Notes under the pieces: generated by a model
Told to the model about the DNA's origin: nothing
Seen by the model: the letters and a program-made list of their open reading frames with translations, nothing else
The model's database searches: none
NCBI GenBank assembly: GCA_023269035.1
Contig: JAHFMJ010000004.1
Location: 1 to 52,940 of the forward strand
Source of the DNA: Candidatus Kaiserbacteria bacterium
Lineage (GTDB): Bacteria; Patescibacteriota; Minisyncoccia; Phycocordibacterales; Phycocordibacteraceae
Direction of reading: 5' to 3'
Length of the DNA stretch: 52,940 bases
Shown: piece by piece, positions 3,424 to 44,482 of the stretch
Layout of the letters: every line of letters begins with the position of its first letter
How positions within the stretch are numbered: position 1 is the first letter of the stretch
Program-made: the position numbers and the translations under genes

Positions 3424-4476
3424 CTAAATTTTTATCACTTCCTCCCACGAGCGGCCGGGGACGCCGAAGTGCCCGTAGGCGGCGGTCTGCTGGAATATTG
3501 GCTTACGGAGGGCCAGGCGCTCGATGATGGCAAGCGGGCGGAAGTCGAAGTTCTTCGCCACTATCTCAGAGAGGTTGGTGCCGCTCTCGTCAAAGGCCTC
3601 GACCATCACCGGGTCGACGCGGCCGATAGCGTAAGCCACCGTCACCAGCACCTTAGTGCCGTAGCCGTTCGCGACAAGGTTCTTCGCGGCAAAGCGGCAC
3701 ATGTAGGCCGCACTACGGTCTACCTTCGTCGCATCTTTGCCGGAAAAGGCGCCGCCGCCGTGCGGCATGAGGCCACCGTAGGTGTCCACCATTATCTTTC
3801 TTCCCGTAAGCCCTGCATCAGCGGCAAAGCCGCCGAGCACGAACTTGCCGGTCGGGTTGACCAGCACCTCCACGCCCTCGAGGCTGCCGAGGACAGGAGT
3901 AAAGAGGTGTTGTATCAATCCAGTGCGTATCTCTTCCTGGCTCGCTTCTTCTGCATGTTGGGTCGAGGTCAGCGCCGTGATGACCTTGCCGTCTTTGATG
4001 GTCACTTGCGTCTTGCCGTCGGGACGGAGGAATTTCAATGTACCGTCGCGGCGTATGGCCTCGAGGCGCCTTGCAAGCGCGTGCGCAAGCACGACGCCAA
4101 GCGGGAGCATCTCTTTAGTCTCGTTGGTCGCGTAACCGTACATGATGCCTTGGTCGCCGGCGCCGCCAGTGTCCACTCCCATCGCGATGTCGCCGGACTG
4201 CTGCACGATCTTGACCAAAATATCGAGAGGGTCGGTGTAGCCGATGTCGCGATACACCTTATCGGCGATGGCTTTGTAATCGACTTTCGCGTTCGTCGTC
4301 ACTTCTCCGCCCATCATCAGCGTGCCGTGGCTGCCGAAGGTCTCGACGGCGACGCGGCTCTTCGGGTCTTGCGCAAGGCACGCGTCAAGGATGGCATCTG
4401 ATATCTGGTCGCACACCTTGTCCGGGTGGCCGGCGGTAACGCTCTCGGTGGTGTAGTACTTCAGTAAGTGGAACAT
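3424..4476 (-). CDS. metK: S-adenosylmethionine synthetase
   Basis: TESVTAGHPDKVCDQISD, GAGDQG, GLTGRKI, GGGAFSGKD and YGHFG motifs. Confidence 0.98.
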   Translation of the reverse strand: MFHLLKYYTTESVTAGHPDKVCDQISDAILDACLAQDPKSRVAVETFGSHGTLMMGGEVTTNAKVDYKAIADKVYRDIGYTDPLDILVKIVQQSGDIAMGVDTGGAGDQGIMYGYATNETKEMLPLGVVLAHALARRLEAIRRDGTLKFLRPDGKTQVTIKDGKVITALTSTQHAEEASQEEIRTGLIQHLFTPVLGSLEGVEVLVNPTGKFVLGGFAADAGLTGRKIMVDTYGGLMPHGGGAFSGKDATKVDRSAAYMCRFAAKNLVANGYGTKVLVTVAYAIGRVDPVMVEAFDESGTNLSEIVAKNFDFRPLAIIERLALRKPIFQQTAAYGHFGVPGRSWEEVIKI

Positions 4477-36023: not shown

Positions 36024-36046
36024 GCCTTTTGCTTTATAGTAGGGGG

Positions 36047-39013
36047 ATGGCAGTGCGTCTTGATGTTGTTACCACGATCGAAGACGCACGCGCGGGACTC
36101 AGGCTCAAGGCTTTCCGGGAGAGTGCAGGCAGCACGGTTACTGCTGTCCATGTCGCCGACTCATACCTCTTAGACGCAGCGCTCTCGCATGCCGGGCTCA
36201 GCAGAGCCCGGCATGCCCTTATAAACCCGCTCATGGAAGCGGCGCATATGACGGGCGCGTGGGTGCCGAAACGTTTTGCCTATGCGATAGAAGTCGGGTT
36301 CCTCCCCGGCGTGACCGATAACGTGGGCGCGACCGCGCAAGAGACGATAGAAGATGCAACCGGATACGCATTTAAGGCGGGCGAGAAGGTTTACTCTTCT
36401 CAGGTATTTGTGATTGAAGGCGCGCTTACCGAGCACGATGTACATACGATTGCTGCGTCGCTCTATAACCCACTGATACATTCGGCGACGATTTATGACC
36501 GTGCGTCGTGGAAGAAGCGGGATAGGACATTCACGGTTCCAAGAGTCTCGCTCTCTGGCTCGTCGGAAGTTGCGGAAGTAAACTTAGAGCTCGCAGACAC
36601 TGAGCTTGCCGAGTTAGGGAAGCTCGGTATCGCCGATGTGGATGGCACGCGTCGTGGCCCGCTCGCACTCTCGCTCGAGTATCTGAAAACCATTCGCAAC
36701 CACTATCGTGCACTGGGGCGGAAACCGACCGATATCGAGCTTGAGGCTCTGGCGCAGACCTGGAGCGAGCACTGCAAGCACACTATTTTCGCGAGCCCGC
36801 TCGATAGTATCGAGAAAGGCATCTACAAGACCTATATAAAAGGAGCGACGGAAAAAATCCGCGCGAAGAAAGGTAAAAACGATTTCTGCGTCTCCGTCTT
36901 CAAAGATAATTCCGGCGGCATCGTCTTTGACGACGAGTACGTTATCACGCACAAGGCCGAGACGCACAACAGCCCTTCGGCCCTCGACCCCTTCGGCGGG
37001 GCAGTGACCGGTATTGTTGGCGTCAACCGTGATGCGATGGGCTTCGGCCTTGGTGCCAAGCCGGTTGCGAACACGTACGGCTTTTGCTTCGCATCGCCCG
37101 AGGAGACACGGCCGCTGTTCCGCGACAGCGAGCGAACGCAGGAGATGCTCCTACCTAAGCGCATCATGGAAGGGGTCATTAAAGGAGTGAACGTTGGCGG
37201 CAACCAGAGCGGGATACCAACGCCGAACGGCTTCATGATTTTCGACGAGTCGTATCGAGGCAAGCCGCTCGTCTTCGTCGGCACCATCGGCCTTATCCCA
37301 AAGAAACGCGGCAAAAGAGTCTTGTATAAGAAAGAGGCAAAGCCGGGAGACTACATCGTGATGGTCGGCGGGCGCGTGGGGCTCGATGGCGTGCATGGTG
37401 CAACGTTCTCCTCCGAGTCGATAAACGCCGGCTCTCCGGTGACGTCGGTACAGATAGGCGATCCCATTACGCAAAAGAAGTTCAGCGATGTGATAATCAA
37501 AGAGGCGCGCGATCAAGAACTCTACACGAGTATTACTGACAACGGCGCAGGCGGTCTCTCCTCCTCGGTCGGCGAGATGGCAGAGCAGAGCGGCGGGTGC
37601 CACGTGCGGCTTGAGAAAGTACCGCTGAAGTATCCGGGCCTCGCGCCCTGGCAGATCTGGATATCAGAGTCGCAAGAGCGCATGACGCTCGCCGTGCCGA
37701 AAAAAAAGTGGAAGGCATTTCACGCACTCATGCAGCGCCGCGGTGTGGAGGCAACAGTGATCGGGGAGTTCACCGAAAGCGGAAAGTGCATAGTCACCTA
37801 CGGTTCAAAAACGATCATGGATTTGAGCTTGGAGTTCTTGCATGACGGCTTGCCGGTAACACCGTTGAAAACTACGAAGCCAAATTTTGTTTTTGAGGAA
37901 CCGGACGTGCGCGTGCCAAAAGATTTCTCCGGTACGTTTGCGGCCATGCTCGCGCGCGAGAATATCGCAAGCAATGCGTTCATCTCCCGCCAATACGACC
38001 ACGAGGTCCAGAGCGGTTCAGTGCTAAAGCCTTTGCAGGGGAAGGGACAGGTAAATGCGGACGCGGCGGTGTTTCGTCCGCGCCTTGAGTCAGAACGGGG
38101 TGTCGTACTTTCGTCAGGAATTACTCCCTACTACGCCAACATCGATCCGTATGGCGCCGCAGCGGCTTCCATAGATACAGCTGTGCGCTCTGCTGTTGCC
38201 GCAGGCGCCCCGCTCGACCATCTGGCAATACTCGATAACTTTTGCTGGTGTTCATCGGACGAGCCGGAACGGCTGTGGCAGTTGAAAGAGGCCGCCAAAG
38301 CCTGTTACGACGTCGCAGTTGCATACGGTACTCCTTATATATCCGGCAAGGACAGCATGTTTAACGACTTCAAGGGCTATGACGAAAAAGGGAACCCGCT
38401 GAAGATCTCCGTCCTCCCGACGCTTCTTATCTCGACCATTGCGGTAATTAAGGACGCCCAGAAGGCCGTCTCGCTCGACGCTAAGATGCCGGGCGACCTC
38501 GTGTATCTTCTCGGCGAAACGCATGAGGAGCTCGGCGGGTCTGAATATTTCAGGATGATCAGCGAGCATAACCAAGAGGGGAAGATCGGCATGAGTGCGC
38601 CGCAGGTGGACGCGAAGAAAAATCTGCGCCTCTACAAGGCGCTTGCAAAAGCGATAGAGCAGGAACTTGTCGCCTCTTCGGTCTCTGTCACGCGCGGCGG
38701 TGTCGCCGTCGCACTTGCACGCATGGGCATGGCGGGTATGCTCGGCATCGATGCGAACCTTGAAAAAATCCCGGGTTCGACCAAAAAGTCCTACGCGCTC
38801 CTCTTTTCCGAAAGCCAAGGACGCATCATTGTGAGCATCGCTCCCGAGAACGCCACAAAGTTCGAAAAACTTTTTTCCGGACTGCCCTTTAAGAAAATTG
38901 GTACGGTAACGAAAGGGAAGAGCATCTCAATCGCGGTCGGAAAGAAGAATTTCGCAAACCTCCCGCTCGGAAAGGCGCTCGAAGCGTATCGTTCAACTTT
39001 TAAAAATTATTAA
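36047..39013 (+). CDS. purL: FGAM synthase PurL with N-terminal PurS-like fusion
   Basis: QTWSEHCKH, KAETHNSPS, DNGAGG, SESQERM, ISGKDS and FSESQGR motifs; N-terminal LPGVTDNVG and NPLI. Confidence 0.95.
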   Translation: MAVRLDVVTTIEDARAGLRLKAFRESAGSTVTAVHVADSYLLDAALSHAGLSRARHALINPLMEAAHMTGAWVPKRFAYAIEVGFLPGVTDNVGATAQETIEDATGYAFKAGEKVYSSQVFVIEGALTEHDVHTIAASLYNPLIHSATIYDRASWKKRDRTFTVPRVSLSGSSEVAEVNLELADTELAELGKLGIADVDGTRRGPLALSLEYLKTIRNHYRALGRKPTDIELEALAQTWSEHCKHTIFASPLDSIEKGIYKTYIKGATEKIRAKKGKNDFCVSVFKDNSGGIVFDDEYVITHKAETHNSPSALDPFGGAVTGIVGVNRDAMGFGLGAKPVANTYGFCFASPEETRPLFRDSERTQEMLLPKRIMEGVIKGVNVGGNQSGIPTPNGFMIFDESYRGKPLVFVGTIGLIPKKRGKRVLYKKEAKPGDYIVMVGGRVGLDGVHGATFSSESINAGSPVTSVQIGDPITQKKFSDVIIKEARDQELYTSITDNGAGGLSSSVGEMAEQSGGCHVRLEKVPLKYPGLAPWQIWISESQERMTLAVPKKKWKAFHALMQRRGVEATVIGEFTESGKCIVTYGSKTIMDLSLEFLHDGLPVTPLKTTKPNFVFEEPDVRVPKDFSGTFAAMLARENIASNAFISRQYDHEVQSGSVLKPLQGKGQVNADAAVFRPRLESERGVVLSSGITPYYANIDPYGAAAASIDTAVRSAVAAGAPLDHLAILDNFCWCSSDEPERLWQLKEAAKACYDVAVAYGTPYISGKDSMFNDFKGYDEKGNPLKISVLPTLLISTIAVIKDAQKAVSLDAKMPGDLVYLLGETHEELGGSEYFRMISEHNQEGKIGMSAPQVDAKKNLRLYKALAKAIEQELVASSVSVTRGGVAVALARMGMAGMLGIDANLEKIPGSTKKSYALLFSESQGRIIVSIAPENATKFEKLFSGLPFKKIGTVTKGKSISIAVGKKNFANLPLGKALEAYRSTFKNY

Positions 39014-39015
39014 CT

Positions 39016-39762
39016 ATGATTGAACGACCCTCAGAAGCAAAAGAAAGCGGTTCTCACCAAGGCAGGGCTTTGGCAGAGTCGCTTCGTTTTCGCACTTGGC
39101 GTGACTCTTCCCTTGCTTGGATACGGGAGGATAACCTCGAAAAACTCGACGTTATCCGGTCAATCGTGGTTGTCGGATCATCAAACTCCGGTAAGACGAC
39201 CATCGTTAACTACATCCGAGAGATGCTCAATAACCATCCGGCTTTCTCCCAAGCTTTTGACATACCAAAGCGGGTGATTACTCGGCCTCAAAGAAAAAAC
39301 GATGATCTCGAAGAGAATATATTTGCCTCAACTAGCGAGGATTTTACGCGAGAGACAGAGAGAGGGATTGCCTGGGAACGCGATATGGGTGCTGGTCGGA
39401 CTGAACGATACGGATTCGTAAAGAGTGACCCAAACAAGATCCCTATATACTCCGCCAACAACGCGTTACTAAAGAACAGAGATAGTATCGTTTCTTCAGA
39501 CCCAAGTTTTTTGGATCACTCGCTGGTGATTTTGGTTTCCGCGCCAGACGATGCCCGTGCGAAACGTCTTGAAAAAAGGTCTCCTGATATTGTGAAAGAT
39601 AAACCTGAAGAAGCTAAAATGCGTATGGAAGACAGTGCCATGAATCAGTACCCCAATTGTCATGTTGTAGTACACAACCCCGAAGGTGCACAAGCAGAGG
39701 TTAAAAAAATTCTCGCCTTCGTACTTGAGAACATCCTTGCGTCGATTAAAGGCACCGTATGA
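39016..39762 (+). CDS. PhnN/guanylate kinase-like P-loop kinase
   Basis: VVGSSNSGKTT, RVITRP..EN, YG and RAKRLEKR motifs. Confidence 0.65.
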   Translation: MIERPSEAKESGSHQGRALAESLRFRTWRDSSLAWIREDNLEKLDVIRSIVVVGSSNSGKTTIVNYIREMLNNHPAFSQAFDIPKRVITRPQRKNDDLEENIFASTSEDFTRETERGIAWERDMGAGRTERYGFVKSDPNKIPIYSANNALLKNRDSIVSSDPSFLDHSLVILVSAPDDARAKRLEKRSPDIVKDKPEEAKMRMEDSAMNQYPNCHVVVHNPEGAQAEVKKILAFVLENILASIKGTV

Positions 39763-40547
39763 AAACCAGAGTACTCATCTTTTCAGGATACGGCCTTAAC
39801 TGCGAAGAAGAAACCGCATACGGTTTTACGCTTGCGGGAGCCTCGACGGATATCGTACACATCAATGATGTTATCGACGGACGGGTAAAATTGAAAGACT
39901 ATCAGATACTCGCGTTCCCCGGCGGCTTTTCCTATGGCGACGATACCGGAAGCGGGAAGGCCTATGCCAACCGAGTGAGGAACCACCTCGGCAAAGAGCT
40001 CAAGGATTTTCTGAAACGCGATACCCCCCGCCAATCGCGGGGCAAGCTCATCATCGGCATCTGCAACGGCTTTCAGATACTCACCCAGCTCGGCCTGCTT
40101 CCGGGTGCGCTCACCTTCAACGACTCGAACCGCTACATCGATAGGTGGGTGGACCTTAAGCCTGAGGGTGATAGCCCATGGCTGAGGGGGATAGAAAAGC
40201 TCTCCGTGCCGATAGCGCATGGCGAAGGAAAATTCATTGCAGACAAAAAGACCCTTGCCGAACTGAAGAAGAAAAAACAAGTCGCGTTCCGCTATGTGAA
40301 AGGGGAGACATCGACGTATCAGGATCTGCCCGCAAACCCGAACGGCGCGATGGAAAATATCGCCGGCGTCCTCTCGCACAAAGGCCGGGTGCTCGGCATG
40401 ATGCCGCACCCCGACCGCCATCTCTTTTCTATCCAACGTCCCGACTGGCCGCTCTTAAAGGAACAGGCAAAACGGGCTGGTACCTTGCTCCCCGAGCACG
40501 GCCAAGGCCTCCAGATTTTCAAAAACGGTGTCGAGTATTTTAGATAA
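39759..40547 (+). CDS. purQ: FGAM synthase glutaminase subunit
   Basis: GLNCEEE, PGGFSYGD, GICNGFQ, AHGEG, NPNG and MMPHPDR motifs. Confidence 0.96.
   Translation: MKTRVLIFSGYGLNCEEETAYGFTLAGASTDIVHINDVIDGRVKLKDYQILAFPGGFSYGDDTGSGKAYANRVRNHLGKELKDFLKRDTPRQSRGKLIIGICNGFQILTQLGLLPGALTFNDSNRYIDRWVDLKPEGDSPWLRGIEKLSVPIAHGEGKFIADKKTLAELKKKKQVAFRYVKGETSTYQDLPANPNGAMENIAGVLSHKGRVLGMMPHPDRHLFSIQRPDWPLLKEQAKRAGTLLPEHGQGLQIFKNGVEYFR
40023..40043. repeat. 21-nt in-frame hairpin insertion in purQ (CCCCGC-CAATC-GCGGGG)
   Basis: Encodes TPRQSRG just before KLIIGICNG. Confidence 0.6.
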
Positions 40548-40555
40548 GAAAACTC

Positions 40556-40690
40556 TTATCTTTTTCTCCTATCGTTCCACCTCCGGAGGCTTCTTTTCGT
40601 TAGAGTGAGTTGTTCTATGAGCAATTCGAGGAATTTGATCGCTCCGCTAACCACGCTGGCGGTTTGTACCTCGTATTTTTTTCCGGTCAT
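40556..40690 (-). CDS. Possible small protein (44 aa)
   Basis: MTGKKYEVQTASVVSGAIKFLELLIEQLTLTKRSLRRWNDRRKR, between purQ and the leader promoter. Confidence 0.35.
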   Translation of the reverse strand: MTGKKYEVQTASVVSGAIKFLELLIEQLTLTKRSLRRWNDRRKR

Positions 40691-40729
40691 AGTTTTTCTA
40701 CGCTATCACGGCTCTTAGAGAAAGTCTAT

Positions 40730-40758
40730 TTGACGCGGCGCATCCTGGCAGGTACCCT
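40730..40758 (+). promoter_or_regulatory. sigma70-type promoter TTGACG-N17-TACCCT
   Basis: Canonical spacing; 8 nt before the leader ATG. Confidence 0.65.
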
Positions 40759-40766
40759 AAGAGCAC

Positions 40767-40838
40767 ATGCACTCAGCCCAGAACATGATGATGGCGATGA
40801 TGATGTCTATGAAAAGGCTGGTTTTGCGTACGCCCTAA
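40767..40838 (+). CDS. Met-rich leader peptide MHSAQNMMMAMMMSMKRLVLRTP
   Basis: 8 in-frame ATG codons in 23, 7 of them within 9 consecutive codons; not in ORF track. Confidence 0.8.
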   Translation: MHSAQNMMMAMMMSMKRLVLRTP

Positions 40839-40900
40839 TTAGTTCAAAGCCCTCGACCAAGACCAGCCTTCGCACCTCCGAGGGCTTTTTATTTACTTTT
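40814..40900 (+). promoter_or_regulatory. Transcription attenuator: antiterminator 40814-40826/40858-40870 versus terminator 40846-40855/40879-40888 plus U tract
   Basis: AAGGCTGGTTTTG pairs with CAAGACCAGCCTT (13 bp, one GU); AAAGCCCTCG pairs with CGAGGGCTTT, followed by TTATTT. Confidence 0.78.
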
Positions 40901-40911
40901 TCACCATCACC

Positions 40912-41877
40912 ATGCCAGAAAGACAACCGAAGAATAATGAGCGCAGAGGACGATTCGCCTGGATAGCCGAGAGTATCAATACGTACAAAAGAGCCCGCTG
41001 GCAGGCGTTTTACGAAAAGATACGCAAAGATACCGGTGTCGCCCATGTAAACGATTGCGCTGACGACGATGCGCGGACGCGCCTTACCGCGCGTTCGTCA
41101 GAATTGCTCGGCCGTTTTGCTGGCTTTACCGGCGTGACCACTGATCTCGAGGGTGCCGGCGGTATCATCAATGCCCTTGATGCACTCAGCGGAGCAGGCC
41201 ACCCGAAATCGAGAAAACATAAGAACGTCATACTTGCCAATGTTGCTCCGCGCGAAGGGGAGGCCGCAAAACGGAATGAGAACGGAAGCCCGTTTTGCTA
41301 CTTCTGGCACCAGGGGACGCTGGTCGTCACGACGGTAGACGGCCTCTCGCTCTCGCTCGTCAAGAAATTCGGTCTCACCAAGAAGGTCCATGTGCTTGAT
41401 ACGAAAAAGGCGCTCGCGCTCTTCAGGAGGAAAGGCATGATCACCCCGGAAGAGGAGGGGCGCATAGGCTCGACCCAATTCAGGAGTTATGAGTTCTCGC
41501 CGCGCGTCGCCGCCTATGTCCTCCGCTATGGCGGTATCCCCGGCGCAGAGCAAAGGAAGATACAAGACATACCGGACGCTCCAGCAGCCGTATGGCTCGT
41601 CGATCAGTTCGCCAAATACGGCAACTGCAAGACGACGGTAACCCTGGAGGATGTTGCGATCGATACGAGCGACACGAGCAAGAGCCCCCACGGCTCTATC
41701 ACCACCAGGTTCGGCAAGCTCCCGTTCTTTCCGCGCCTAAAGGATGCGCTTGAGGGTACGCCCTGCATCGTCGTCGGGAGCTCCGGCCTCGGCAAAAGGC
41801 GTTTCCTTGAAATAGTCATTAAGGGAGGGAATGCCGCACAGGCCCTCGGCCTCTCTTCAGGAGACGAGATTTTCTAG
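40912..41877 (+). CDS. SAM hydroxide adenosyltransferase/halogenase (DUF62) family protein, divergent
   Basis: C-terminal VD.F..GN.KT and GSSG...LEIV.KGGNAA..LGLSSGDEI; N-terminal NDC, NVAPR, TQFRS. Confidence 0.75.
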   Translation: MPERQPKNNERRGRFAWIAESINTYKRARWQAFYEKIRKDTGVAHVNDCADDDARTRLTARSSELLGRFAGFTGVTTDLEGAGGIINALDALSGAGHPKSRKHKNVILANVAPREGEAAKRNENGSPFCYFWHQGTLVVTTVDGLSLSLVKKFGLTKKVHVLDTKKALALFRRKGMITPEEEGRIGSTQFRSYEFSPRVAAYVLRYGGIPGAEQRKIQDIPDAPAAVWLVDQFAKYGNCKTTVTLEDVAIDTSDTSKSPHGSITTRFGKLPFFPRLKDALEGTPCIVVGSSGLGKRRFLEIVIKGGNAAQALGLSSGDEIF

Positions 41878-41907
41878 CTTTTGCAGAGTGCGGTATGATA
41901 TGAGCTT

Positions 41908-42435
41908 ATGAGTACAGCGCTTGTCGGCATCATCATGGGCTCGGACTCCGACCTCACCATCATGAAGGCCGCCGCTGATGTGCTCGAAGAGCTCGGCATC
42001 GCCTCTGACGTGACCGCCCTCTCGGCACACCGCGCACCGGAGGAGGTCGCTGAATACGCAAAAACTGCAGCGGAAAAAGGCCTTAAAGTTATCATCGCAG
42101 GCGCGGGCGTTGCGGCGCACCTCCCTGGCGTCATTGCCGCTTTCACGCCGTTGCCCGTCATCGGCGTTCCTATCAAGAGCTCCGCTACTGCGGGTATCGA
42201 CTCGCTCTTCGCCATCGCGCAGATGCCGCCGGGCGTTCCCGTTGCGACCGTTGCCATAAACGGTGCAAAGAACGCCGGCATCCTCGCCGCGCAGATAATC
42301 GGCACGGGCGACGCTTCGGTTTTACAGAAAATGATCGACTACAAGAAGAAGATGAATGCCGATGTCGTTGCCAAAGCACAAAAGATAGAAGAGCGCGGGT
42401 TTAAAAAATACATGGAAGAAAACGGCTTGCTATGA
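41908..42435 (+). CDS. purE: N5-CAIR mutase
   Basis: IIMGSDSD, SAHR.P, AGAG.AAHLPG and QMPPGVPVATV motifs. Confidence 0.97.
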   Translation: MSTALVGIIMGSDSDLTIMKAAADVLEELGIASDVTALSAHRAPEEVAEYAKTAAEKGLKVIIAGAGVAAHLPGVIAAFTPLPVIGVPIKSSATAGIDSLFAIAQMPPGVPVATVAINGAKNAGILAAQIIGTGDASVLQKMIDYKKKMNADVVAKAQKIEERGFKKYMEENGLL

Positions 42436-43547
42436 GCGAGTACGCGAAGGCAGGTGTGGACTATTCAGTACTGGAGCCCTTCAAGCAGGCGATGATCGCG
42501 GCGGGGAAGCAGACACTCAGCTTTCCTAACAAAAGAGATGTCTTTGTCGCCGAAGACGTGATGCATGCGCACGGAGCCGTGTTCGAATATCGCGGGAAGA
42601 AAGATCACCTGTGGTGCCAGACGCAGGAGGGTCTCGGCAACAAGAACTGGGTCGCGGAGTGGATGTATGAGAACAGCGGTACCGGCAAGACCTACCACGA
42701 CCTCATAGCACAGGACGTAGCGCTCATGTCGGCCAACGACTGCCTCGCACAGGGCGCCTTGCCGGTCATTTTTACCGATCATATCGAAGCCAATTCGAGC
42801 GAGTGGTTCGGGGATGTAAAGCGTGCACAAGATTTGGCCGCCGGATTCGTAAAAATCTGCGAGGAGGTCGGGATGGCCCTCCCTGCCGGAGAGTCTGCTC
42901 CTTTGAAATATTTGATAAATCCTAAAGCGCCCGTGAAGAACGCGGCGAGCTTCTCTGGCGCCGTCACCGGTATCATCGCGCCGAAGAAGAACGTCATAAC
43001 TGGCAAAGACCTCAAACCGGGCGACCACATCATCGCGGCAACCTCCTCCGGCATCCACTCGAACGGCATTTCCTTGGTAATAACGAAGGCGATGGATTTG
43101 CCTGAAAATTTTTTGACCAAGCTTCCGAACGGAAATACGCTCGGAGAGGAGACACTCATCCCGACTCGTTCGTATATAAAGCTCATAGAAGCTCTTTTGG
43201 AAAATGAGATCAAGATCAGCGCGCTGCTTCCTGCGACCGGCGACGGCGTGGGCAAGATAGCTTTCGACAAAAGACCCTTCACCTACCGCATCAGCTCGTG
43301 GCTCCCTGTCCCGCCGCTCTTCACGTATTTCCGGGAACAGTTGGGGCTCCCGCTCGAGGACTGCCTCAAGACCTTCAACTGGGGTGCGGGATATTATATC
43401 TTCGCTCCAGAGGGTGAAGTGAAAAAAATACTTTCCATCGGAAAGAAAATAGGGTATGAACTGATGGATGTCGGGGTCGTCGAAGCAGGGAAAAGGGAAG
43501 TGGTGTTCGAACCCGAAAATATTACCCTCATGCCTCCGGGCGAATAA
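42432..43547 (+). CDS. purM: AIR synthase
   Basis: YAKAGVD, EGLGNK, AGESA, SSGIHSNG and TFNWG motifs. Confidence 0.9.
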   Translation: MSEYAKAGVDYSVLEPFKQAMIAAGKQTLSFPNKRDVFVAEDVMHAHGAVFEYRGKKDHLWCQTQEGLGNKNWVAEWMYENSGTGKTYHDLIAQDVALMSANDCLAQGALPVIFTDHIEANSSEWFGDVKRAQDLAAGFVKICEEVGMALPAGESAPLKYLINPKAPVKNAASFSGAVTGIIAPKKNVITGKDLKPGDHIIAATSSGIHSNGISLVITKAMDLPENFLTKLPNGNTLGEETLIPTRSYIKLIEALLENEIKISALLPATGDGVGKIAFDKRPFTYRISSWLPVPPLFTYFREQLGLPLEDCLKTFNWGAGYYIFAPEGEVKKILSIGKKIGYELMDVGVVEAGKREVVFEPENITLMPPGE

Positions 43548-43549
43548 CT

Positions 43550-44482
43550 ATGACTGACGTATTAAAAAAGACCGACTTTAAGAATCTTGGCGAGCGGACG
43601 GAGGGCAAGGTCCGCGATATTTATACGCAGCAGGACAAGATAATCCTGGTCACCACCGACCGCCATTCATCCTTTGACCGCATCATCGCGCACATCCCGC
43701 ACAAAGGCGCGGTGCTCAACCTCGCGAGCGCCTTCTGGTTCAAGAACACCGAGCACATCATCGGCAACCAGGTCATAGCGGTCCCCGACCCGAACGTGGT
43801 CGTGGCGAAGCGCGCCAAGCCGTTCCTCGTCGAGGTGGTGGTGCGCGGCTACCTCACCGGCGTTACCGACACCTCTATATGGACTAACTATCAAAAAGGG
43901 ACGCGCGACTTTGGCGGCATCACGCTCCCCGACGGAATGAAAAAGAACATGCCGCTCCCGAAAGCCATCATCACCCCGACCACCAAAGCCGGGCATGATG
44001 AAAACCTCTCGCTCGATGAGGTGGTACCGCGCGGCCTCGCCACGCAAGCCGAGTGGGACGAGATGCAGCGCGCGGCGCTCGCGCTCTTTGAGTTCGGGCA
44101 ATTGCACGCTGCGGCAAACGGACTCATCTTGGTTGATACCAAATACGAATTTGGTCTCTACGAGGGAAAAGTAATACTCATCGACGAAGTGCACACGCCG
44201 GACAACTCGCGGTACTGGCAAGCCTCTACGTACAAGGAGCGCCTTGCGCAAGGCGAGGAGCCGATGGCGTTTGATAAAGAGTTCCTCCGTATCTGGTTCA
44301 AGCAGAACTGCGACCCATACAAAGACGCCGTACTCCCTGAGGCCCCCGCGGAGATGGTGGAAGAGATGTCACGCCGCTATATCTCGCTCTTTGAGCAATT
44401 GACCGGAGAGAAATTCGTAAAATTCGAGGGCAGCATCACCGAGCGCATAGAAAAGAACCTGATGCCATATCGTCTTGGTTAA
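43550..44482 (+). CDS. purC: SAICAR synthase
   Basis: GKVRDIY, TDRHSSFD, TPTTK, DTKYEFG, DEVHTPD.SRYW and DKEFLR motifs. Confidence 0.96.
   Translation: MTDVLKKTDFKNLGERTEGKVRDIYTQQDKIILVTTDRHSSFDRIIAHIPHKGAVLNLASAFWFKNTEHIIGNQVIAVPDPNVVVAKRAKPFLVEVVVRGYLTGVTDTSIWTNYQKGTRDFGGITLPDGMKKNMPLPKAIITPTTKAGHDENLSLDEVVPRGLATQAEWDEMQRAALALFEFGQLHAAANGLILVDTKYEFGLYEGKVILIDEVHTPDNSRYWQASTYKERLAQGEEPMAFDKEFLRIWFKQNCDPYKDAVLPEAPAEMVEEMSRRYISLFEQLTGEKFVKFEGSITERIEKNLMPYRLG

Follow-up and report, generated by a model that had tools for sequence, protein, structure and literature searches.

Classical leader-peptide attenuators (trp, his, leu, thr, pheA and ilv; Trp_leader and His_leader in Rfam) share a layout. 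A short open reading frame (ORF) contains a run of codons for a single amino acid, an intrinsic terminator stands just 5' of the gene, and an antiterminator uses some of the terminator's bases and has its 5' strand within reach of a ribosome that does not stall. The literature that can be searched gives examples of such attenuation for Trp, His, Leu, Thr, Phe, Ile/Val and Cys. It gives none for methionine, the control of which is attributed to MetJ/MetR, the S-box, the T-box and S-adenosylmethionine (SAM) riboswitches. The subject of this article is a leader that may be the methionine version. It lies at 40730-40911 of contig JAHFMJ010000004.1 (assembly GCA_023269035.1), a stretch of 52,940 nucleotides (nt), called the window from here on, which comes from a Candidatus Kaiserbacteria bacterium, a member of the Patescibacteria or Candidate Phyla Radiation (CPR). 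Immediately downstream is a gene for a 321-residue protein. From the sequence of the leader and its relatives, we read it as a ribosome-mediated transcription attenuator that would sense charged elongator tRNA-Met, and we put the probability of this reading at about 0.8. What is new here, if we are right, is not the mechanism but its methionine form, which appears to be widespread in CPR bacteria.

Our search of full-text literature found no description of a Met-codon leader peptide; subscription journals and supplements lay outside the search, so an earlier description is possible. The passages of PMC2965389 that discuss His leaders in Firmicutes contain no Met leader, and the supplementary attenuator lists of that paper might hold Met-type leaders. 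For Actinobacteria, the relevant sections of PMC1262725 report Trp, Cys and Leu/Ile/Val leaders; they describe methionine genes as known under S-box control elsewhere, with no RNA element found for them in Actinobacteria. A parallel of another kind comes from mycobacteria, where short polycysteine ORFs are presented (bioRxiv 10.1101/834739) as leaderless first cistrons that act as amino-acid-responsive attenuators of the genes that follow. Those ORFs resemble ours in being leaderless (ours probably so) and short, with consecutive codons for a sulphur amino acid. They differ in that the amino acid is Cys and the phylum another, and in that the leaders studied here generally have a hairpin, a U tract and a competing helix, whereas the mycobacterial cys leaders, going by the sections of PMC1262725 that treat them, lack conserved terminator hairpins. 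The SAM-I riboswitch (S-box) and the Met-specific T-box do the job that we propose for our leader, premature termination before Met/SAM genes that is relieved when supply is low. The proposed sensor is different: a ribosome translating AUG codons rather than an aptamer or a tRNA-binding RNA. Before two homologues of our gene (at loci L050 and L048) SAM-I even takes the ORF's place. Set against the classical attenuators, our leader differs in its amino acid, in its host (a CPR bacterium) and in its gene, which is predicted to encode an enzyme of the SalL/DUF62 fold rather than a biosynthetic operon. Its upstream ORF (uORF) is probably leaderless, and its untranslated RNA is predicted to read through, with no 1:2 'protector' helix found, where classical leaders terminate.

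A first-pass annotation of this DNA, made from the letters alone, had described a promoter TTGACG-N17-TACCCT, a uORF at 40767-40838 with 7 ATG in 9 codons, a 13-base-pair (bp) helix between 40814-26 and 40858-70, and a terminator with a U tract. All are present, on the plus strand. The promoter-like site occupies 40730-40758 (-35 TTGACG at 40730-35, a 17-nt spacer, -10 TACCCT at 40753-58), and 8 nt separate its end from the ATG at 40767. The uORF, MHSAQNMMMAMMMSMKRLVLRTP, has 23 codons and a TAA stop; its regulatory run, at 40785-40811, reads ATG ATG ATG GCG ATG ATG ATG TCT ATG. The last codons of the uORF supply the 5' strand of the antiterminator, AAGGCUGGUUUUG at 40814-40826, 10-22 nt ahead of the stop codon. 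The 3' strand, CAAGACCAGCCUU, follows at 40858-40870 and ends in 6 nt with which a small terminator stem begins. Paired as AAGGCTGGTTTTG with CAAGACCAGCCTT, the two strands make 12 Watson-Crick pairs and one G-U, with a computed energy of -17.5 to -19.7 kcal/mol (-19.7 as a duplex).

The terminator comes in two forms. The small hairpin (AGCCUUCG / CGAGGGCU, 40865-40886) has 8 bp and a loop of 6, and was detected by a terminator scan as AGCCTTCG (40865-72) pairing with CGAGGGCT (40879-86), 5 of its 8 pairs being G-C, with the tail TTTTATTTAC; its energy is -11.1 to -11.7 kcal/mol. The large alternative (40846-40888) pairs AAAGCCCUCG at 40846-55 with CGAGGGCUUU at 40879-88, a stem of 10 bp around a 23-nt loop at -14.9 to -15.0 kcal/mol; as first described, it is AAAGCCCTCG with CGAGGGCTTT, followed by T5-A-T3. 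The U tract, TTTTTATTT, spans 40886-40894, and the T at its first three positions take part in closing the large stem as well. Because 6 nt (40865-70) are common to both, the small terminator and the antiterminator are strictly exclusive. Between the large stem and the antiterminator there is interleaving only, with the topology of a pseudoknot. So the terminator of the first-pass annotation stands, with the correction that strict competition comes from the smaller hairpin 40865-72/40879-86. The antiterminator has a better computed energy than either terminator form, and the minimum-free-energy structure of the free leader RNA contains it. We found no anti-antiterminator (1:2) helix in the window leader, and the switch would therefore be on by default; the likeness to trp, his, leu and thr leaders that had been claimed extends to leader ORF, codon run, terminator and antiterminator, and in this missing helix the element differs from trp and his. 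The gene's ATG at 40912 follows the U tract after only 17 nt. That leaves no room for a separate promoter, so the gene would be expressed by read-through only.

How unusual is such a leader within its own genome? The run itself is very unusual. When we collected, throughout the genome and from either strand, every ORF of 6-45 codons that starts with ATG (n=6078), no other reached the uORF's 6 Met within 7 residues; the runners-up were three ORFs with 4. Generic measures were less telling. The fold energy of 40760-40911 is not significant alone (z -1.41; 16 of 200 shuffles fold as well), a terminator scan of 38500-43000 found 7 sites where 5.8 were expected, and a generic promoter scan showed no enrichment over shuffles. 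The simple promoter scan missed the site at 40730 because its -10 hexamer matches at only 3 of 6 positions.

Further evidence for our reading comes from relatives. The first-pass annotation had proposed to look upstream of homologues for a conserved poly-Met uORF and for covarying helices, and to fold the leader with and without segments masked by a ribosome. The search for uORFs came out positive and broader than expected. Among 61 related genomes, 6 encode a homologue of the downstream gene. Three other long-form homologues (37-66% identity) all have a uORF of the same type upstream (MSIVICAMMMAMMMPMRRLVLRTVSI, MNPAQTSSMMMAMMMLMRRLVLRYT and MHNSAQMSGMMMAMMPSMRRLVLCHS), and two short-form homologues have none. 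A protein-profile scan of one genome per species then gave 52 loci, all in CPR lineages, and a scan of metagenome contigs gave 80 further loci, 72 of them with at least 150 nt upstream. The genome loci counted here are the window and 51 others, with one truncated locus excluded. Counting a Met-run uORF as one with at least 3 Met in 7 residues within 300-330 nt upstream, we find it at 31 of the 52 genome loci and 49 of the 80 metagenome loci, or 80 of 132 together. The antisense strand of the same regions has none in 52, and other 300-nt windows of the same loci have 6 in 904. With the threshold raised to at least 4 Met, the count is 21 of 52 upstream regions and 0 of 904 control windows. We judge chance to be an unlikely explanation of the leader.

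The 80 uORF-bearing loci reduce to 73 unique leaders, which fall into 36 blastn clusters with no detectable nucleotide similarity between them. Their peptides (..MMMEMMTLKNEGAFSHT, ..MMAMMNSPELGVAYCIA, ..MMMVMSAA and ..MMMPLVTQRSFSLS are examples) have the Met run alone in common, so what is conserved is the run and the layout. In the window's own subfamily of 7 members, all keep the frame, the ATG start and the in-frame stop, while the N-terminal part varies in sequence and in length, by whole codons. Inside subfamilies, C-terminal residues are conserved (RRLVLR, KNEGTFSHT or SPNIGVAYCIA). In most relatives the gap from uORF stop to gene is short, and between uORF and gene a hairpin with a T tract, at -6.7 kcal/mol or better, is found at 29 of the 31 genome loci.

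A further question is whether the end of the uORF and the terminator compete for the same bases. Downstream of the last Met codon and ahead of the terminator, 42 of 66 leaders contain bases complementary to the terminator's 5' strand, at p<=0.05 against 300 dinucleotide shuffles of each leader. With one representative per cluster this holds in 19 of 32, where 1.6 would be expected (binomial 3.5e-17). The median position of the partner is -21 to -7 nt from the stop codon, which is to say the last codons of the uORF. We then folded 67 of the 73 leaders by partition function, with a 28-nt mask in place of a ribosome; equilibrium folding of this kind does not capture the order of transcription. 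The median pairing probability of the terminator's 3' strand is 0.43 when no ribosome is present. With the mask on the run it is 0.23 at the first Met, 0.33 at the middle one and 0.76 at the last; with the mask at the stop it is 0.80. From first Met to stop this probability goes up by more than 0.2 in 31 leaders and down by more than 0.2 in 2.

Alignments add something on the helices themselves. In the window subfamily (7 sequences, alignment A3) the antiterminator is paired in 88 of 91 cells, with one double-sided change, and the small terminator in 55 of 56; the changes are wobble or compensatory, one pair reading U-G, C-G or U-A according to the sequence. The large stem had to be read by eye rather than counted by the tool, because MAFFT misaligns its 5' strand in A3; T-A becomes C-G in L100 and L128, and the stem shortens to 7 bp in L007. 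In the relative L041 the small terminator carries a GAAA tetraloop. In the KNEG subfamily (14 sequences, A4) the terminator is 96.4% paired and its covariation score lies above all 500 shuffles, with one pair that reads CG 11 times, UA twice and AU once.

Two other explanations have to be met at this point. The first is that the uORF is an independent small-protein gene, encoding a functional Met-rich peptide (metal-binding or membrane, for example) under its own promoter and terminator, with the overlap of helices incidental. A promoter-like site and a terminator of its own it does have, and its C-terminal residues are conserved inside subfamilies. Yet it is precisely the codons of those residues that provide the pairing partner for the terminator's 5' strand, the peptides of the 36 clusters share nothing beyond the Met run, no Pfam family matches the uORF peptide, and with 17 nt from U tract to ATG the next gene is left with no promoter. 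We regard the small-protein gene as quite unlikely. The second is that translation is not involved at all, and that the AUG repeats and helices make up the aptamer of a riboswitch or the binding site of a protein. The conserved helices would suit such a leader, and homologues do use riboswitches as well as a structured two-hairpin motif. Searches with covariance models speak the other way: the whole window at gathering thresholds contains one tRNA and nothing more, the leader matches neither SAM-I, other SAM riboswitches nor the T-box, and a permissive Rfam search of 40300-41100 (E<=10) gave 5 matches, all to snoRNA models, at 17.6 bits or less and far under their gathering scores. Nor does an aptamer call for AUGs that always lie in one frame with start and stop, an N-terminal part that changes length by whole codons, or substitutions in the paired 5' strand that are synonymous (AGG to CGG, GTT to GTC), and no sequence outside the run is common to the clusters. 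A ligand-binding or protein-bound leader strikes us as very improbable.

The attenuator that we favour needs a ribosome on the uORF, and the promoter spacing suggests how it might get there. A site of the form TTGAC[GT]-N16/17-TAnnnT stands at the same place before the uORF in the 6 members of the window subfamily that have upstream DNA. Of the 73 leaders, 40 have a promoter-like site with its end 3-40 nt ahead of an in-frame uORF ATG; the distance is 6-13 nt in 31 and exactly 6 nt in 16. From the spacing, a gap of 6 nt would put the start of transcription on the A of the ATG; the 8 nt of the window would give a 5' untranslated region of about 0-2 nt, near-leaderless. Probably, then, the uORF is leaderless or nearly so.

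The mechanism we propose runs as follows. Transcription from the promoter at 40730-58 would begin on the uORF's AUG or no more than a few bases from it, and translation would be leaderless or nearly so. With Met-tRNA plentiful, the ribosome would cross the seven AUGs, enter the last codons of the uORF, and unwind and cover 40814-26. That would free 40858-70, and either 40865-72/40879-86 or the larger 40846-55/40879-88 could form ahead of the U tract, stopping RNA polymerase 17 nt before the gene. With Met-tRNA scarce, the ribosome would stall on the run of AUGs (40785-40811), upstream of 40814; stalled at 40785-40805, with its leading edge at about +12 nt, it would leave 40814-26 free. The antiterminator, more stable and transcribed first, would then form and block the terminator, and the SalL/DUF62-fold gene would be read, possibly with purE, purM and purC behind it. 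The operative competition would be the one between the antiterminator and the small hairpin 40865-72/40879-86. Should initiation itself fail for lack of Met, no ribosome would arrive and the outcome would be the same as with stalling. A default-on design makes sense for methionine because Met starvation also blocks initiation.

What, then, is the gene that such a switch would control? At 40912-41877 of the plus strand lies the coding sequence for 321 residues, and the label 'SAM hydrolase-like' that it had first been given holds at the level of the fold. Pfam SAM_HAT_C matches at 27.9 bits (cut-off 25.5), as it does all 6 family members tested; SAM_HAT_N was not reported at E<=1. A profile search of the PDB returned the (R)-SAM hydrolase MJ1651 with E 0.0014. 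An AlphaFold model built with 51 family sequences has a mean confidence (predicted local distance difference test, pLDDT) of 92.7, and the top 38 PDB matches that Foldseek finds for it are all SalL, soil chlorinases, DUF62 SAM hydrolases or fluorinases (E 2e-10 to 5e-7, about 15% identity over some 300 aligned columns). On the model, the protein has the two-domain fold of SalL, the fluorinase (FlA) and DUF62 (SAM hydroxide adenosyltransferase). Enzymes of this superfamily cleave SAM at C5' and release L-methionine. The whole two-domain fold and a C-terminal Pfam domain above cut-off are what our protein has in common with them; it differs in its low identity, in an N-terminal domain that goes undetected by Pfam, and in its motifs, which are NDCxDDNAxGRQ, NVAPR, TQFRS and DNFGN. 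In a local profile alignment the FHGRD of MJ1651, the His of which we take to be a member of the catalytic triad, falls opposite QFRS. A further difference is an extra N-terminal extension of about 45 residues (residues 1-45, 40912-41046) in the window subfamily, predicted as a single long helix, H14-38. Short-form homologues, of 246-285 residues, lack this extension.

The window gene's own tie to methionine metabolism is this predicted fold, one of SAM-cleaving enzymes that release L-Met. Further observations come from other genomes. Upstream of the homologue at L050, which has no Met uORF, a SAM-I riboswitch lies at L050:1258-1359 with 61.8 bits against a gathering score of 44.4. At L048, likewise without a Met uORF, there is a variant of SAM-I (L048:905-1076) with a 69-nt insert and 33.3 bits, below gathering. 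We also scanned 401 Patescibacteria genomes for ATGATGATGNNNATGATG, which matched in 29 of them, and several of the matches are short uORFs followed by terminators ahead of other genes. On the reverse strand of L143 (run at 1501) a Met-run uORF precedes a homoserine O-acyltransferase, MetA/HTS (PF04204, E 1e-60), with a Shine-Dalgarno sequence and ATG after the terminator. At L153, which is the same place as L175, a Met-run uORF and terminator precede a homocysteine S-methyltransferase (PF02574, E 3e-21). PF02574 occurs in 7 of the 401 genomes; of 6 such loci examined with upstream DNA, 2 (L174 and L175) have a Met-rich uORF with a terminator and the other 4 have none. Tentatively, the genes behind the uORFs of L156 and L157 may be remote relatives of the window's family, judging by NAAPR, QFRS and D.YGN motifs; hhalign gives the L156 protein only 19% probability against the family profile, and the BLASTP match between L156 and L157 is weak. 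SAM-I on sister loci, together with Met-run uORFs at metA and at homocysteine S-methyltransferase, points to methionine as the signal. We conclude that one arrangement occurs repeatedly in Patescibacteria, before this gene family, metA and a homocysteine S-methyltransferase: a Met-run uORF and a terminator that, by its sequence, competes with the 3' end of the uORF.

It is here that a third explanation is best weighed. The leader might sense the state of translation in general, coupling read-through to the availability of ribosomes, to initiation (formylmethionyl-tRNA, formylation, leaderless capacity) or to the speed of elongation, in which case the AUG run would be a set of in-frame starts. 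Met is also the initiator amino acid, the promoter spacing suggests leaderless initiation with its need for a 5' AUG, the switch would be on by default when no ribosome is there, and some uORFs begin with the run itself (L072, MMMAMMTLKNEGTFSHS). In most leaders, however, an ATG lies 6-15 codons 5' of the run, which is the arrangement of classical leaders; in 36 unrelated clusters it is Met, specifically, that makes up the run; and the regulated genes are tied to Met or SAM (metA, homocysteine methyltransferase, the SalL/DUF62 fold, SAM-I on homologues). A general sensor of translation seems to us unlikely. The methionine attenuator, the central claim of the first-pass annotation, is supported by the Met-run uORFs in both sets of loci, by the complementarity in cluster representatives, and by the associations with SAM-I, metA and homocysteine S-methyltransferase.

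Several observations weigh against our preferred reading nonetheless. Among the genome loci 21 of 52 lack a Met-run uORF, as do 31 of 80 among the metagenome loci, and since loci from related organisms are not independent, counts at the level of clusters are the safer ones. In the window the -10 hexamer is a weak one, matching at 3 of 6 positions, and a Shine-Dalgarno sequence is absent, so that translation of the uORF rests on an assumed leaderless initiation. A pseudoknot in which the antiterminator and the large stem are both formed is conceivable in principle. Of the 13 nt in the antiterminator's 5' strand, only 6 are masked by a ribosome that stands on the stop codon. Ribosome-masked folding, favourable across the set, is less so for the window itself, where pairing of the terminator's 3' strand is 0.02 without a ribosome, 0.24, 0.05 and 0.34 with one at the first, middle and last Met, and 0.40 at the stop: a modest rise in this equilibrium simulation, though in the right direction. 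About 14 of the 67 leaders have a terminator probability of at least 0.96 in every state. Covariation, too, is a divided result. The KNEG terminator exceeds its shuffles, but the antiterminator of that subfamily (94.4% paired, two double-sided pairs) is marginal, with 48 of 500 shuffles reaching its score, and in the window subfamily neither helix is significant (154 of 500 shuffles for the antiterminator, 360 of 500 for the small terminator). As for the genes, a hydrolase that consumes SAM is not obviously wanted under a SAM-I riboswitch, which turns off at high SAM, and the presence of purE-purM-purC behind a Met switch is unexplained.

Taking a broader view, we lean, without great assurance, towards a picture in which Patescibacteria run a phylum-wide Met regulon through leaderless poly-Met leader peptides. 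These would be the first Met-specific ribosome-mediated attenuators, of a two-helix, default-on design. They would control the SalL/DUF62-fold family (a likely route to L-Met from adenosyl-sulfonium compounds), metA and homocysteine methyltransferase, and would be interchangeable in evolution with SAM-I and with an undescribed structured RNA motif. A Met-codon attenuator, if true, would close the methionine gap among leader-peptide attenuators and show how attenuator design handles an amino acid that is also required for initiation. CPR bacteria cannot be grown alone. For them this would be an early cis-regulatory system to be defined, and it would provide a regulatory handle both on the function of the SalL/DUF62-fold family and for finding more Met/SAM genes in reduced genomes.

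The host genome, to which the window belongs, comprises 710,320 bases in 41 contigs and is 96% complete. Window DNA is contained in groundwater metagenome runs (three DNA runs from one study, which may be where the assembly came from), and its closest relatives in public records are metagenome-assembled genomes of Patescibacteria/CPR. The leader and the 321-residue gene form a cassette within a purine cluster (36029-44482). First comes purL (36029-39013), then an ORF of 248 residues (39016-39762) with a few bases of overlap at both ends, for which we see only a weak P-loop (AAA_18) similarity under the Pfam cut-off, and then purQ (39759-40547; GATase_5, E 6e-77). The leader sits in the gap of 364 nt between purQ and the 321-residue gene, behind which purE (41908-42435; AIRC, E 9e-61) is followed by purM and purC. 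The terminator scan of 38500-43000 found no plus-strand terminator between 41877 and purE, and purE-purM-purC may therefore be co-regulated. Adenosine is the other product of DUF62-type enzymes. The genome also encodes an S-adenosylhomocysteine hydrolase, and no nucleosidase of the PNP_UDP_1 type was found in it. The window's metK (3424-4476, minus strand) has neither a Met-run uORF nor an Rfam riboswitch, and the SalL/DUF62-fold gene is the only one in the host genome with the Met leader. The same purine setting (purL, purQ, leader, gene, purE, purM, purC) is also seen in genome G002, and in G024 a PurQ-like gene lies directly upstream (loci L002 and L003).

Other homologues are preceded by something else again. 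We noticed a two-hairpin RNA motif upstream of them, in 15 unique sequences and with no Rfam match (L016:1283-1344, L037:1351-1409, L121:1037-1098, L135:1009-1063, L137:1043-1095 and 10 more). Its first hairpin, P1, has the conserved loop GAGGUAAU; the second, P2, pairs GGAAAUA with UAUUUCC; a conserved CCAYCACA comes next and then, usually, a terminator. Compensatory changes are seen at 4 of 13 predicted pairs. Because the motif replaces the Met uORF or SAM-I before the same gene family, it is a candidate for a Met/SAM-related riboswitch or a ribosome mimic. At one locus both devices stand in tandem (L017:1243-1421): the two-hairpin motif with its terminator, then a Met-run uORF, MINTLAITMMMEHD, with a second terminator, and then the same gene.

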